From a virus (lineage: Duplodnaviria > Heunggongvirae > Uroviricota > Caudoviricetes), in IMG/VR virus record IMGVR_UViG_2654587728_000014, positions 1 to 64,000 of that record: a stretch of DNA of 64,000 bases. One strand, given 5' to 3'. Made by a program: the position numbers and the translations under genes. The first letter of the stretch is position 1; every line of letters begins with the position of its first letter. Positions 3,549-10,845 of this stretch are shown in pieces. The notes under the pieces were generated by a model. It did no database searches and was not told where the DNA came from. It saw only the letters and a program-made list of their open reading frames with translations.

Positions 3549-4905
3549 TATCCGGGTCGCTTTCAGCGCCGTTGACAGGCTGACCCGACCTGCAGAAAAC
3601 GCACGCCGCCTGATGGGGCAGTTTGGTGACTCCATCCAGCGAACGCAGGGGGCGATCAAAAATCTCGAGCGTCAGGCGCGTTCATTTGAGCGCGCCCGCG
3701 ACGCTGTCAGTAAAGCGGATGCGGGTATCGTGAAAGCACGACGCCAGCTTAACGCCCTTAATCAGTTACAACGCACGGGTACAGTGCTCAGCGAAAAACA
3801 ACAAAAGCTGATGCAGCAGTTAAGCACCCGGCTTGAACGCCTGAATGAATCGCGCACACGGGAGATTCAGAAAATGCGGGAGCTTGGCGGAGAGCTGAAA
3901 CGCCACGGCATTTCCCTGACAGGCAGCGATAACACCATCCAGCAGGCCATCAGACGCACCGAACAGTACAACAACCAGCTTGAACGCGAACGGCAGGCGC
4001 TTGCGCGTGTAACGCGGGCGCGTGAGCGGTATTCGCGCGCGCAGGAAACCGCGGGAAAACTGAAAACAGGTGGTGCACTGGCAACAGGTGCGGCAGCGGC
4101 GGGCGGCTATGCTGCCGGGCGTTTTTTGCAGCCCGCGATTGGGTTCGGGAAAGAGATGTCCCGCGTTCAGGCACTGACGCGAATCGACAAAAACAGCCCA
4201 CAGTTTAAGGCGCTGCGTGAGCAGGCGTTAAAACTTGGCTCTGAAACGCAGTTCACCGCTGGAGATGCCGCCAGTGGACAGGCATTTCTTGCAATGGCTG
4301 GTTTTACTCCGCAGGCCATTCAGGCTGCGTTTCCCGGCGTGCTGAGCATGGCAACGGCTGGCGGTATGGATCTCGGCGAGACGGCGGATATTGGCTCAAA
4401 TATCCTGACGCAGTTCGGCCTCTCTGCTGACCAGATGGACCGGGTTGGCGACACGCTTACAGCGGCGTTTACCCGTACCAACACTGACCTTCGCGCGCTG
4501 GGCGAAACCATGAAATATGCAGGTCCGGTGGCGGGTAAGCTGGGAATATCGCTGGAGCAGGCCGCTGCGATGGCGGGCGTGCTGGCGAATATGGGCATCA
4601 GAGGGAGTGATGCCGGGACGGCAATGCGTGCCAGCCTGGCTCGTCTGGCATCACCGCCAAAGGCGGCAGCAGAGGCGCTGAAAGAGCTGGGTGTGGCTGT
4701 CTCTGACGCGAACGGCAAAATGCGCCCGATGGAGGATGTACTGGCCGACCTTTATAAAGCCACCCGCAAATACGGGGAAGTTGACCGGGTATCGTTCTTT
4801 AAGGACATTGCCGGAGAAGAGGCTTTCACATCGTTTATGGCGCTCGTTGATGCAGCGGGTGACGTGATGCGCCGCGCGATAAATGCACTCTATCTTGTGC
4901 GATAA
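3526..4905 (+). pseudogene. T: P2-like tape measure protein gpT, N-terminal part; native sequence ends about 4864 where a Mu-like end begins
   Basis: ORF 3499..4905 with coiled-coil tape-measure character; last 13 codons (VMRRAINALYLVR) are read from the inserted element. Confidence 0.8.
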
Positions 4906-4940
4906 ATGGCATCCACGCGGCGTTTCATTATTTGAAAAAG
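4865..4940 (+). repeat. Mu-like right-end terminal repeat region (putative transposase-binding sites)
   Basis: TGAT-N9-GATAAATG terminal motif, repeated GCGATAAATG(C/G)CA, then GTTTCATTATTTGAAAAAG; same motif at 10682. Confidence 0.55.
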
Positions 4941-4942
4941 AA

Positions 4943-5515
4943 TTACATTTCAGGTTGCGTTATGACAGTCCCAACAGGGTGATAGCGGTAGATCGTTGAC
5001 AGTCCAATATCATAGATAATTGCCAGCCGCTTTCTGTCATACCCTTTCTGGAGCAATCTTGCGATCTGCTCATGCTGCTCCTTCGTCAGTTTCGGGCGAC
5101 GTCCTCCAACTCTTCCTTGTGCTCGCGCAGCAGCCAGTCCAGCCAGCGTGCGCTCAACTATCAGTTCACGCTCCATTTCTGCCAGTGCACCCATCATATG
5201 AAAAAAGAACCTTCCCATCGGAGTGCTGGTATCGATTGAATCCGTCAGACTGCGAAAATTGACACCTTTTGCGCGTAGCTCTTCTGTGAGAGCAATGAGG
5301 TGTTTCATTCTTCTACCCAACCGATCCAGCTTCCAGACCACCAATGTATCCCCTCTTTTAAGGCACTTTAAAGCGCGTTTCAGGCCTGGTCGTTCCGACT
5401 TGGTTCCGCTCATTTTGTCCTCAAAAATCTGTTCACATCCTGCGCACATTAATGCATTGCGTTGCAAATCTGTGTTTTGGTCATTTGTTGACACACGTAT
5501 GTAGCCAATCAGCAT
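4943..5515 (-). CDS. gin: Gin/Hin/Pin-family serine DNA invertase (invertase 1)
   Basis: 190 aa MLIGYIRVSTNDQNTDLQRNAL...; catalytic Ser motif and C-terminal HTH; AAGGGAG RBS; ORF track 4943..5644 has an upstream non-native extension. Confidence 0.93.
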   Translation of the reverse strand: MLIGYIRVSTNDQNTDLQRNALMCAGCEQIFEDKMSGTKSERPGLKRALKCLKRGDTLVVWKLDRLGRRMKHLIALTEELRAKGVNFRSLTDSIDTSTPMGRFFFHMMGALAEMERELIVERTLAGLAAARAQGRVGGRRPKLTKEQHEQIARLLQKGYDRKRLAIIYDIGLSTIYRYHPVGTVITQPEM

Positions 5516-5569
5516 TAAAAATACTCCCTTTTGAGTGGTTAAAGTACTGAGATAATGTGGGGAGGATTT

Positions 5570-5597
5570 GAGAGATAAACGTTGGTTTGGGAGAAGG
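5570..5597. other. gix-like crossover site A (GAGATAAACGTTGGTTTGGGAGAAGG)
   Basis: matches gix/hix/cix consensus core AAACC-NN-GGTTT; inverted relative to site B at 7984-8011. Confidence 0.6.
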
Positions 5598-8666: not shown

Positions 8667-8686
8667 TCTGACCATTAGCGGTTTTG
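8659..8686 (+). terminator. rho-independent terminator of invertase 2
   Basis: hairpin ACCGCTAAT-CTGACC-ATTAGCGGT followed by TTTTG. Confidence 0.6.
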
Positions 8687-8692
8687 CGTTAA

Positions 8693-9187
8693 TCAAAACA
8701 GCCCTTTAACGGAGCTGGCCGCGCTGTTAAGGGATGATGTGACCTTATCTTTGAAGCCGGACAGCATATCACTGAACGATGAGGATTGCAGGCGCTCCCG
8801 CAAATCCTCATCACAGCGTTCAAGAGTCAGTGAAAATTCTATCTTTTTCGCCTTACCGTAGCGATCAAACTCGGAACGGGTCGTATTCGTTTCAGTCAGT
8901 ACATACATGCCGTAAATCTGCCCGACACCATCAATCAGAGGCCAGGGGCGTCCTGTATATGCCTGCGTGGTCAGCAACGAAAGCGACACTTCGCCACCTG
9001 TAATTTCAGGATAAAGCACGCCGGAAAGCACGATGCGATCATCACCTGCGCCGATATACTGCCAGCTTGCTGAACGGTTAACGCGTTCATTTTTCACATG
9101 CCGCCAGCTTTTGTTTTGCTGTAACTGCTGATGCGGCAATGTGCGCAGCTCAAAAACAAACATGCCGTAGATCATCATCATGGCCAT
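8693..9187 (-). CDS. U: P2-like tail protein gpU
   Basis: 164 aa MAMMMIYGMFVFELRTLP...; gpU family; D is not downstream as it would be in P2. Confidence 0.88.
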   Translation of the reverse strand: MAMMMIYGMFVFELRTLPHQQLQQNKSWRHVKNERVNRSASWQYIGAGDDRIVLSGVLYPEITGGEVSLSLLTTQAYTGRPWPLIDGVGQIYGMYVLTETNTTRSEFDRYGKAKKIEFSLTLERCDEDLRERLQSSSFSDMLSGFKDKVTSSLNSAASSVKGLF

Positions 9188-9193
9188 GACTCC

Positions 9194-10681
9194 TCAATCT
9201 TTATCGTAAAAACTGCCACGCCCGGCACGGGCGCGCCGTTCCATTTCTGCCCTGACCATTTCGCCAATCAGTTTCGCCAGTTCGCGGGGATTCTGTGTAA
9301 CAACGTTATGCAGATGAACATGAATTTCACCGCCAAATCCGGAGGCAACAGGCTCCCGGTTACGGGAAGTTGCAGGAACTGATGCCACTGGCGATCGTAT
9401 AGCCTCCGCCACCGGGCGGGAGCTGGCCGCAACAACAGGGACCAGCGCCGGAGGCAGCGGAGCCGGAACCACGGGTGTGATAGTAATTGCGGGGGCAGGC
9501 TTACTGACCTGCGCAATCTTCCGCTCCTGCCACTCCCCACGAACAGCAAGTGCGCGGGGCAGGTTCTTAAAGACAATATCGCCGGGGCCAATGCGTTTTT
9601 TCGTCTCATCAACCAGCTTACCTGTGTTATCAGCAATTTTGCTGAGTCTGCGTAGCGTACCGGTATTGTTGTCTGTGAGCGGTTTGTTGTCTCTGGGTTT
9701 ATCGCCTTTTTTGTCGTCGACCTTATCTGACGGGGCCGGGCCGGGAGTCCATGGTTTCTGAACCATTTTCTTGAGAACCGGATCCCATTCCCACATTACA
9801 GGAGCCTTTGAAGCGTTCTCTATTTTCTTTCTCGCCCGTTCCGCTTCATCCGGAAGCACTCCGAGCTTTTCAAGTATCCACGCCAGTGAATCCATCAATG
9901 CTTTTGTTGGCGTCAGGACAAGCTCTATCGCTCCACCGAGTACCCTGCCGAATACCTCGCCAGCACTGGTACATTTATCCAGCGTTTCCTTGCTGGACTC
10001 CATCGGTGACAGCAGCGATTTAAACCAGTTAAAGACCTGAATAATCCCATCGCGCACGACATCAAAAACTGGACCGAACCGTTCAAAGGTTTCGCGCAAC
10101 GGAGCCAGCCGTTCCATAATCCCACTGAACACCCCTGCATAAAACGCCTTGATGGGTTCCCAGTATTTCCAGATGAGAACCGCCGCAGCCACAAACGCAG
10201 CAGCAATCAATCCGACCGGGCTGAACAGCGCCCCGATAGCGCCCCCCAGTAACGAAACGGAACCCGTCACCATTCCCCATAGTGCTGGCAGGAGCCTGAC
10301 AGCATTCATTGATCCGGTCAGGAGGGAAAAGCCAAGACGCAGTTTTGCCAGCGGGCCAGCAAGCACACCAATAGCCAACGACAACGAGCCGACCGTTGCA
10401 GTCATCGCCAGCAATGCCCCACCTGCAATCAGTAGCTGGCGCGTCAGTGCCGGATGGGCCTGCGCCAGCGCCGTCACCTTTGATACCACCCGCGTGAGCC
10501 ACTGCGTGACAGAACGCAGCGGACCGTCAATCAGATCTGCAATGCGGATGCGCAACCCTTCCCATGCACTGCCGAGTGATTTCAGATCGCCGTCAAGGTT
10601 GTTGGCCATAACCTTTGCTGTGCGTTCAGCCTCACCGCGCGCGCCTTCAAGTTCTTTTCTCAGTTTGGGTAAGGAGCCGTC
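9194..10681 (-). pseudogene. T: P2-like tape measure protein gpT, C-terminal part (upstream boundary is the Mu-like end at about 10681)
   Basis: ORF 9194..10609 (471 aa) with Gly/Ala-rich hydrophobic tape-measure segment; frame open only to an in-frame stop at 10658-10660. Confidence 0.78.
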
Positions 10682-10845
10682 ACTGATTAGACTTGAGATA
10701 AATGACAGGGAATAAGTGAGATATTTATGGGAAGAACTGGGTCAAAATGGGAAGAGACTAGGAGGAATATGCAATAACCTTACAGTATGTGAAAATCAGA
10801 CCGGCCCGAAAAAAAACAGAACTCGCGCCAGCCTGATTGCAGATA
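10682..10845 (+). repeat. Mu-like end (left-end type) with repeated putative transposase-binding motifs
   Basis: TGATTAGACTTGAGATAAATGACAGG (compare Mu L1 TGATTCACTTGAAGTACG); ATGGGAAGA direct repeats; CGAAAAAAAACAG. Confidence 0.5.

Follow-up and report, generated by a model that had tools for sequence, protein, structure and literature searches.

The 64,000-nt stretch of DNA analysed here (the window), part of the 159-kb draft whole-genome shotgun (WGS) contig JHRJ01000008.1 of assembly GCA_001267345.1, holds two nested prophages: a P2-like prophage and, inside its tape-measure gene T, a transposable prophage of the BcepMu type. Both ends of the inner prophage read in the same direction, and the two parts of T lie on opposite strands. 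This arrangement is very probably explained by one BcepMu-type insertion into T followed by an invertase-mediated inversion between the two prophages. At least one 37–41-kb inversion between sites of the two prophages is needed in every model, and this is the robust conclusion of the comparison presented below.

One insertion in gene T

Direct reading of the plus strand at 4859–4888 gives cgggGTGACG joined to TGATGCGCCGCGCGATAAATGCAC, with GTGACG at 4859–4864 and TGATGCGCCGCGCGATAAATGCAC beginning at 4865. At 10674–10709 the same strand reads ggagCCGTCAC joined to TGATTAGACTTGAGATAAATGACAGG, which begins at 10684 behind CGTCAC at 10678–10683 (GTGACG on the minus strand). The terminus TGAT-N9-GATAAATG is common to both prophage ends and lies on the plus strand at both, as the original prediction, made from the sequence alone, had described. 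Its coordinates for the first end (4865, with GTGACG at 4859–4864) are exact, whereas the second end starts at 10684 rather than 10682 and its flanking GTGACG occupies 10678–10683 rather than 10676–10681. Each 24-mer at an end occurs only once in the window at up to three mismatches, with 0 expected by chance.

The intact P2-like T gene of E. coli FAM21845 (L001 11611–14418, minus strand) served as reference for the two parts of T. By blastn, T-N (3535–4864, plus) matches T positions 1–1330 at 95.8% and T-C (9194–10683, minus) matches positions 1325–2808 at 89.6%. An exact-sequence look-up of the truncated T-N protein gave no record, which probably reflects a differing start-codon call. The two halves therefore abut, with exactly 6 bp (GTGACG) duplicated, and together they rebuild one continuous T in a P2-type tail operon with FI, FII and E upstream and U downstream. 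A single Mu-type transposition into T with a 5–6-bp target duplication had been proposed, with halves that should abut at GTGACG when aligned to an intact P2-family T; both points are borne out, as the halves adjoin in one T gene and share those 6 bp.

The end sequences start at identical bases beside unrelated flanks elsewhere (aroA/ycaL in genomes of sequence type 131 (ST131), sufB, hyf and the PhiKM record), thus indicating that 4865 and 10684 are true ends. The copy between aroA and ycaL is an independent insertion, flanked by GAAGAA on either side, so that both insertions, this one and the one in T with GTGACG, display a 6-bp target duplication. More copies lie beside gcd, cbtA and a lambdoid gpJ, besides those at sufB and hyf; many unrelated insertion sites are as expected for a transposable phage.

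A second GATAAATG-type repeat is found approximately 23 bp inward of each end. Of the MuA-like repeats that had been suggested at both termini, this one stands, while the GTTTCATT..GAAAAA motif is confined to the vicinity of 4865, where the invertase gene has its 3′ end, and is not common to both termini. The GTTTCATTATTTGAAAAAG motif at 4913–4942 directly follows the invertase stop codon and has no counterpart at the other end; it is therefore more likely a gin 3′ element, possibly a terminator, than a transposase site.

Comparisons below refer to L003 and L004 (ST131-type BcepMu-like prophages at one locus, with the array in opposite orientations), to the P2-like prophage relatives L001, L006 and L012, and to the BcepMu-like prophages L009 (HSP60) and L010 (RIVM_C036569). 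The features that define the insertion are:

3535–4864, plus: T-N, 5′ part of T (Pfam PhageMin_Tail, E=7e-59); the open reading frame (ORF) runs into the prophage end and stops at 4905
4859–4864, plus: target duplication GTGACG, copy 1; the overlap, T positions 1325–1330
4865–5581, unstranded: block G, the gin-proximal (right) prophage end; 100% over 717 bp to L003/L004
4865–4912, unstranded: terminal repeats in block G, by alignment to the BcepMu right end
9194–10683, minus: T-C, 3′ part of T; 8000–10683 is colinear with L001 at 93.4%
10678–10683, minus: target duplication GTGACG, copy 2, within T-C
10684–44874, plus: body of the BcepMu-like prophage (block B) from its Mor-proximal left end; 99–99.6% to PhiKM and the ST131 prophages
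10684–10735, plus: left-end repeats, in the prophage body

A Bcepmuvirus-type element

A 22-kb megablast query running rightward from 10684 matched Escherichia phage PhiKM, which is classified in Bcepmuvirus, at 99.6% and Klebsiella phage KP12 and Phi06_2974 B at approximately 85%; it gave no DNA-level match to Mu, D108 or SfMu. The gene order follows that of Burkholderia phage BcepMu: Mor and GemA adjoin the end, and the early genes run leftward on the reverse strand, as do those for an ExeA-like AAA+ protein and an rve transposase; the lysis, head and P2-like tail modules follow rightward. Pfam analysis of the prophage ORFs identified Mor, AAA_22 in an ORF of 401 aa and rve (PF00665) in an ORF of 589 aa. 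By BLASTP, the transposase is 67.8% identical to BcepMu gp09 over 581 aa.

10846–11235, minus: Mor (Pfam)
14688–15893, minus: AAA+ transposition protein (Pfam AAA_22)
15865–17634, minus: rve transposase (Pfam rve; 67.8% to BcepMu gp09)

Both ends start with TGAT and align in register with the L and R ends of BcepMu (TGAAG...), the gin end with the right end. All four ends have TGAW followed by GAGATAWWT/GCGATAWWT repeats near positions 12 (12–20) and 35 (35–43). TG/CA termini are characteristic of the BcepMu-like group (PMC2628397). The gin-proximal 717 bp (4865–5581) are 100% identical in approximately 600 complete E. coli genomes, many of them ST131, in which the prophage sits between aroA and ycaL with GAAGAA on both sides.

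From its gene order and termini, the element is a Bcepmuvirus-type transposable prophage and not Mu proper. Mu proper was rejected as a candidate by the lack of a Mu, D108 or SfMu DNA match, by a duplication of 6 bp rather than 5 bp, and by the BcepMu-type order and ends; a Mu-type c–ner–A–B early operon reading inward from the left is not present, as the early genes are on the opposite strand and Mor lies beside the end. The Mu-like prophage of the original prediction is thus a transposable phage, as supposed, but is of BcepMu type and not of the Mu/D108/SfMu group.

The PhiKM record (L002, PQ738613) is circularly permuted and lacks the gin end and the cassette array. At 20200–20577 its left phage end adjoins approximately 330 bp of bacterial origin, with the annotation Fe2+ ABC transporter permease. 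Such a join would be expected had the assembly taken in host flanks packaged in the manner of Mu.

Hybrid crossover sites and a mosaic between the ends

Each prophage has its own invertase gene. Both invertase ORFs carry the Pfam domains PF00239 (Resolvase) and PF02796 (HTH_7), and the proteins are 86% identical to each other (159/184, BLASTP). The BcepMu-side enzyme of 190 aa matches the Mu Gin structures 4M6F/3UJ3 over 181 residues (E=2e-93). A Fis-dependent recombinational enhancer in the 5′ part of the invertase gene is likely, given how similar the gene is to gin.

A scan of both strands of the window revealed five crossover sites of approximately 26 bp, each of the form flank–TT–GGTTTGGGRGAAGG, which share an asymmetric 2-bp TT core. 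All five have GGTTTRGGRGAAG as inner (cassette-side) half and a 12-bp flank half, and they sit at the constant/variable boundaries of tail-fibre genes and beside the invertase genes. The cassette side of site a, TTGGTTTGGGAGAAGG, is identical to the inverted repeat of the e14 P segment (PMC12529663). Four of the five sites (a, b, c and e) pair the flank of one prophage with a cassette of the other; only site d is native. The sites and the blocks that they delimit are listed here, each site being named by its flank (f) and cassette. On the BcepMu-like side, fG denotes the gin flank, fX1 the internal flank and fS the S-N flank; on the P2-like side, fR denotes the invertase flank and fH the H-N flank.

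4943–5515, minus: BcepMu-side Gin-family invertase, 190 aa (Resolvase + HTH_7)
5570–5595, plus, core TT 5582–5583: site a, fG/ya, hybrid; flank 200/200 to L003/L004, cassette 99% to P2-like L006
5584–7558, unstranded: block Y, P2-type two-ended cassette array; 5584–6864 is 96.8% to P2-like L006
6800–7560, unstranded: right part of block Y; 99.2% to the two-site array beside the recombinase in ML775
5587–6048, plus: cassette ya, in block Y
6048–6641, plus: tfa of block Y
6613–7056, minus: tfa′; protein 68% identical to L001 G′
7058–7531, minus: cassette yb, in block Y
7547–7572, minus, core 7559–7560: site b, fX1/yb, hybrid; flank 99% to the L003/L004 mid-site flank, first 35–37 nt of the cassette identical to L001 yb
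7561–7997, minus: block X1, a BcepMu-type cassette that lacks tfa; 99.5% over 437 bp both to X1 of L003/L004 and to X1 of the P2-like prophage of strain 1434
7986–8011, minus, core 7998–7999: site c, fR/x1, hybrid; 8000–8700 is 99.4–99.9% to P2-like L001/L012
8067–8666, plus: invertase gene (rec) of the P2-like prophage, Gin/Pin family (Pfam Resolvase + HTH_7)
8693–9187, minus: P2-like tail gene U (Pfam Phage_P2_GpU, E=5.5e-39)
43887–44874, plus: constant part of tail fibre gene S, in the prophage body
44863–44888, plus, core 44875–44876: site d, fS/x2a, both BcepMu-type (two-strand site scan)
44877–46477, unstranded: block X2, BcepMu-type; 99.94% over 1601 bp to L003/L004 X2
to 45341, plus: cassette x2a, end of S, in block X2
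45348–45962, minus: tfa of block X2
45962–46477, minus: cassette x2b, in block X2
46466–46491, minus, core 46478–46479: site e, fH/x2b, hybrid; flank 200/200 to L001 H, cassette 200/200 to L003/L004
45962–47611, minus: chimeric tail fibre gene, P2-like H N-terminal part with BcepMu-type x2b tip (ORF, 549 aa)

The native pairings are seen in relatives:

BcepMu-like L003, three sites: fG/x1, fX1/x2a, fS/x2b
BcepMu-like L004, three sites, same locus, array flipped: fG/x2b, fX1/x2a, fS/x1
P2-like L001, two sites: fH/ya′, fR/yb

L003 and L004 share one insertion site and carry the entire X1+X2 array in opposite orientations, so the array truly inverts in nature. Inversions within single prophages are documented (bioRxiv 10.1101/2022.05.07.487787; PMC4272514). 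In ST131, the P88-like and phiE255/BcepMu-like prophages flip internally, and their fibres were noted to be homologous (bioRxiv 10.1101/2022.05.07.487787). Invertases of different prophages also act in trans on one another's sites (PMC12529663).

Comparison block by block revealed that parentage changes exactly at the TT cores:

G, 4865–5581: BcepMu-like, 100%
Y, 5584–6864: P2-like L006, 96.8%
X1, 7561–7997: BcepMu-like, 99.5%
rec to the T-C side, 8000–10683: P2-like L001, 93.4%
B body, 10684–44874: BcepMu-like, 99%
X2, 44877–46477: BcepMu-like, 99.94%
H side, 46480–50000: P2-like L001, 97.4%

At sites a and e, 200 of 200 flank bases come from one parent and 198–200 of 200 cassette bases from the other. 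The alternative flanks diverge from the very base beside the core, and the cassettes do so by position +6 to +9, which limits the exchange to approximately 10 bp around the core, an interval too short for RecA-type homologous recombination. By this fine mapping, both sites bear the mark of conservative site-specific recombination and not of homologous recombination between the longer 72–86% repeats nearby. Probes of 140 bp over these two hybrid sites were uninformative, because the first ~70 bp are conserved in all cassettes and native pairings match at approximately 95%, and longer probes were used instead. For the site c flank and the site b cassette, an ungapped 200-bp comparison gave spuriously low values (indels or a variant cassette), and gapped blastn with more relatives was used.

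The segment 5579–10683 has the same layout as P2-like prophages of other E. coli (fibre C-terminal cassette, tfa, tfa′, second cassette, recombinase, U, T), and the remaining P2-like virion genes (H, I, J, W, V ... N, O, P, Q; 45962–58893) come right after the prophage fibre gene S. This layout on either side indicates that both prophages are split in their tail-fibre regions. Judged by the parentage of its parts, 4865–10683 is thus not prophage interior but a mosaic of gin end, P2 cassettes, BcepMu-type cassette, P2 invertase, U and T-C. The later inversion with a breakpoint inside the element, which had been predicted from the direct ends, is supported by this mosaic; by the hybrid pairings, both breakpoints are invertase crossover sites, the internal one belonging to the cassettes of the BcepMu-like prophage and the external one to those of the P2-like prophage.

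A probable history of two inversions

A BcepMu-type phage of approximately 37 kb transposed once, into codon ~443 of T in a resident P2-like prophage, and duplicated GTGACG. As the anatomy shows, each phage carries a serine invertase of the Gin/Pin family and a set of interchangeable C-terminal cassettes for its tail fibre, bounded by the same type of site. Because sites and enzymes are interchangeable, we propose from the hybrid sites that an invertase then brought together one site from each array, in inverted orientation and 37–41 kb apart, and inverted the DNA between them. The inverted segment would comprise T-C, U, the invertase gene of the P2-like prophage, and the body of the inner prophage including the end next to Mor. 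Its inversion would make both ends read the same way and place T-C on the opposite strand from T-N.

This history was modelled with six signed blocks (G, X1, X2, B, Y and H), with inversions allowed only between oppositely oriented sites. The model has 64 reachable isomers, and eight of these count as parental because they differ only by flips inside one array or the other. Two inversions, along one unique path, lead from the parental set to the observed isomer (G, Y, -X1, -B, X2, H). Inversion 1 would be between the BcepMu mid-site and the P2 H-site and flip [X2, B, Y], approximately 40.5 kb; inversion 2 would be between the gin-site and the new rec-proximal site and flip [X1, Y], approximately 2.4 kb. 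This count assumes parents like the nearest relatives, namely a BcepMu-like prophage with three sites and X1+X2 and a P2-like prophage with two sites and Y. All four BcepMu-like relatives examined have three sites with X1+X2, and the three relatives of Y (L001, L006 and ML775) all have two-site arrays without X1.

Several points weigh against this history. The evidence comes from a draft assembly, and the same configuration was seen in no other searched genome. The junction of T with the prophage end had no match among 5,426 complete E. coli genomes, nor did the exact junction in metagenome contigs or contigs of species-representative genomes, and the junction at site e (fH/x2b) was not covered by any of the 5,426. 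X-type three-site arrays are native in P2-like prophages too (E2348/69, and strain 1434 with X1 at 99.5%), so the parental arrays and the count of two inversions are unproven. Gin-family invertases are not known to work efficiently over approximately 40 kb in vivo, and the loss of transposition competence that should accompany this isomer is predicted from Mu biochemistry.

Competing accounts

The most serious competitor retains the mechanism and invokes one inversion only, between parents with other arrays; we consider it possible, though rather unlikely. In one form (model B), a P2-like parent with [Y+X1] and three sites and a BcepMu-like parent with X2 only would have recombined the gin-site with the H-site, inverting 40.9 kb (5584–46477). 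In the other (model C), a BcepMu-like parent with Y and a P2-like parent with X1+X2 would have recombined the S-site with the mid-site, inverting 37.3 kb (7561–44874). A single event is the simpler assumption, earlier movement of cassettes between the two lineages is evident, and window positions 7546–8700 (site b, X1, site c and rec) are contiguous in the P2-like prophages of strain 1434 and E2348/69. However, none of the 5,426 genomes joins the 100%-identical gin block to a Y-type array, and the full-length matches are pinE-type elements at approximately 90%. The consistent array types of the relatives (four of four with X1+X2 on the BcepMu-like side, three of three two-site and without X1 on the Y side) also speak against such parents. 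Moreover, X2 is 99.94% identical to the array of the ST131 BcepMu-like prophage, compared with 97.3% or approximately 70% to P2-borne X arrays, a value that fits the BcepMu backbone (99–100%) and not the P2 backbone (93–97%). From these comparisons we prefer the two-step history, which is probably correct, over models B and C.

It is improbable that the order is an assembly artefact, in which the assembler threaded the repeated sites of a mixed population into an order absent from every individual molecule. In its favour, the contig is from a draft WGS assembly, cultures are mixtures with respect to invertible arrays (PMC4272514), and cassettes can be alike at their starts over as much as 212 bp (x1 and x2b, 96%). 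A mis-join, however, needs shared sequence on both sides, and native and hybrid pairings share only approximately 10–20 bp round the core; this is below usual assembly k-mers, and the hybrid junctions must therefore be read-supported. Nor can T-N on plus with T-C on minus arise from flips within either array, and the five junctions fit together as one of the 64 isomers.

Still less credible is inversion by RecA-dependent homologous recombination between cassettes or between the inverted invertase genes. Inverted repeats (I1–I6, 145–392 bp, 72–86% identity) do link both regions, yet every switch of parentage lies at a TT core, outside the longer homologies. The flank partners are unrelated (fG and fH are ~28% identical), and exact shared sequence at each junction amounts to approximately 10–20 bp. 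The invertase genes themselves are unmixed, with gin 100% identical to L003 and rec 99.4–99.9% identical to P2-like relatives. We regard it as very improbable that the ends at 4865 and 10684, which are direct and only 5.8 kb apart, unlike those of one intact element, stem from two separate insertions or from a solo end and a truncated prophage, as their flanks are adjacent positions of one T gene with a shared 6-bp duplication, each end is single-copy in the window, and G, X1, X2 and B make up one complete prophage, colinear at 99–100% with the 37,045-bp ST131 copy.

Cassette traffic in other genomes

Strain E2348/69 has a native three-site X-type array in a P2-like prophage, with 70–80% identity to the array here; this is the shufflon of PMC4272514. 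In strain 1434 (L011/L013, NZ_CP184019.1 3864122–3870561), a P2-like prophage with intact T has a mosaic tail-fibre gene that consists of a P2 H N-terminal fragment, the distal part of a BcepMu-type S, the fS flank, X2 (interrupted by IS66), fX1 and X1 (99.5%), and this array is joined to the P2 invertase at a crossover site. As read from this mosaic, a whole cassette array was moved between phage lineages in a past lateral replacement. A second inter-prophage inversion was considered for strain 1434 and rejected, as it is an ordinary P2-like prophage with T intact and with the distal half of a BcepMu-type fibre and its array. The BcepMu-like prophages of HSP60 and RIVM_C036569 (7383–7855; at sufB and hyf) contain a ya-like cassette in the X1 position beside gin, which is 92.7% (HSP60) and 87% (RIVM_C036569) identical to the P2/e14-type cassette ya of the window. 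These cases suggest that cassettes circulate among invertase-bearing phages by an exchange route that recurs in evolution; they are themselves past mosaics and not events caught under way.

Predicted consequences of the isomer

The P2-like prophage would have lost its tape-measure gene at insertion. Its H gene is predicted to be an intact chimera of 549 aa, in which the P2 N-terminal part carries the BcepMu-type x2b tip and is followed by the chaperone gene of that tip. The exact chimeric H protein is on record in one contig only, JHRJ01000008.1. S (43887–45341) keeps its native tip, and the P2 cassettes ya and yb, now between two invertase genes with no fibre N-terminus to join, are presumably silent. 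The prophage ends have become direct repeats, and 717 bp of the right end are parted from the rest. With ends that are direct and not inverted, the prophage should be unable to transpose in this isomer, by analogy with Mu, which needs its ends properly oriented. The ends are inverted in 32 of the 64 isomers and direct in the other 32, and three of the six single inversions open from the observed state would restore inverted ends. Both invertase ORFs and the five sites look intact, so further flips are possible and the system may still be switching.

It is tempting, if no more than tentative, to view the nested prophages as one live inter-phage shufflon, in which five sites and two invertases deal five cassettes between the unrelated fibre genes S and H and toggle the inner prophage between transposition-competent and locked states. 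The BcepMu-type array of strain 1434 and the P2/e14-type cassette of HSP60 may be traces of such dealing. If true, this would be a natural, reversible route for the exchange of host-range modules between phage families, and a prophage switched on and off by DNA inversion.

Tail-fibre tips are common to unrelated phage families (P2, Mu, P1 and e14), but the way in which entire cassettes pass from family to family has for the most part been deduced from mosaic sequences. The locus appears to catch such a transfer in the act, as site-to-site recombination between prophages: a single step gives a P2-type fibre the tip of a BcepMu-type one, and the 26-bp site is all the homology that this requires. 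It also indicates that a prophage invertase system can invert 40 kb and break the end geometry of a transposable prophage. All components are already known, and what appears to be new is the recombination of sites between prophages with a large inversion and cassette exchange; the literature searched contained no report of crossover-site recombination between two prophages with that outcome. There is a warning here for annotation, because the 5.8 kb between the ends is not the prophage, and an annotator who overlooks the inversion will take both prophages for truncated ones.

Other features of the window

The remaining P2-like genes are:

1–1109/1242, minus: P2-like D (ORF list; Pfam Phage_GPD)
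1268–2452, plus: P2-like FI sheath (ORF list; colinear with annotated P2-like L001/L006)
2452–2964, plus: P2-like FII tube (ORF list; colinear with L001/L006)
3019–3384, plus: P2-like E (ORF list; colinear with L001/L006)
47608–58893, I, J, W, V ... N, O minus and P, Q plus: other P2-like structural genes (Pfam; 46480–50000 is 97.4% to L001)

The P2-like prophage runs past both ends of the window. Beyond the portal gene Q, 58908–64000 contains minus-strand ORFs of 187, 319 and 621 aa, which by comparison with strain 1434 appear to be the P2-like early region (a ParM-like segregation protein and a replication endonuclease). The prophage belongs with a widespread P2-like lineage (L001, L006, L011/L014) in which the FI-FII-E-T-U operon is inverted relative to D-ogr and directly follows the invertase gene, in the order H G, G′ H′, rec, U T E FII FI (reversed), D ogr. 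In canonical P2, by contrast, FI...U, D and ogr are co-directional. In the window, D (minus) and FI (plus) diverge from a spacer of approximately 158 bp. RefSeq D in relatives has only ~263 aa, and the Pfam GPD match spans profile positions 48–304 only. Truncation of D by an inversion breakpoint was considered and is unsupported in the window, where a plausible start at 1109 gives a D of approximately 368 aa and the 158-bp divergent spacer.

The constant part of S has three tandem copies of a 168-bp unit at 44100–44713 (Phage_fiber_2 repeats), which are 82–90% identical over a 278-nt reference copy at a start-to-start spacing of 168 bp. The ST131 relatives have another copy number of this repeat, and their S is annotated as a pseudogene. 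Cassettes x2a (44889–45341) and x1 (7561–7997) lack a tfa of their own, and x2b, ya and yb each have one.

Comparison with known systems

Like Mu, D108 and SfMu, the element is a temperate transposable phage: its ends are TG...CA, it inserts almost at random and duplicates a short target, and it has a Mor-type activator and, at one end, an invertase of the Gin type. It differs from Mu proper in its 6-bp rather than 5-bp duplication, its early region running leftward from the Mor-proximal end, its transposase of the Tn552/IS1604 rve type and the lack of a DNA-level match to the Mu group. BcepMu and PhiKM are closer, sharing gene order, TG...CA ends, repeats, a Tn552-like rve transposase and an ExeA-like AAA+ partner. 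BcepMu, however, ends with an acyltransferase cargo gene where this element has gin and the cassette array, and the PhiKM record lacks the gin-side end, whereas the prophage here is split by inversion.

The classical switches of the Mu G segment (Gin), the P1 C segment (Cin) and the e14 P segment (Pin) likewise combine a small serine invertase with an asymmetric 2-bp core, have their sites at the constant/variable boundary of a fibre gene, and carry cassettes that are alternative C-termini with their own chaperones. These switches invert 2–4 kb, compared with 37–41 kb here, where the sites come from two prophages; their outcome is a flip of host range only, in contrast to the exchange of cassettes between phages and the disrupted end geometry at this locus. 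Min of plasmid p15B is a multiple-inversion system with six crossover sites. The P2-like shufflon of enteropathogenic E. coli (EPEC) E2348/69 has three repeats and four variants (PMC4272514). As in both of these, more than two compatible sites give combinatorial isomers, of which five sites produce 64 here; Min and the EPEC shufflon each serve one fibre gene in one element, whereas the present system is the union of two arrays, with S and H and two invertases.

Action in trans has precedents. PinQ, PinR and PinE act on the e14 P segment in trans (PMC12529663), and Fels-2 Fin substitutes for Hin, according to the citation of Kutsukake et al. 2006 in PMC4272514. In these cases, as here, the invertase of one prophage recognises the sites of another element. 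Both sites there lie within one element, and recombination of sites between elements is not described; at the locus analysed here, the recombined sites belong to different elements.

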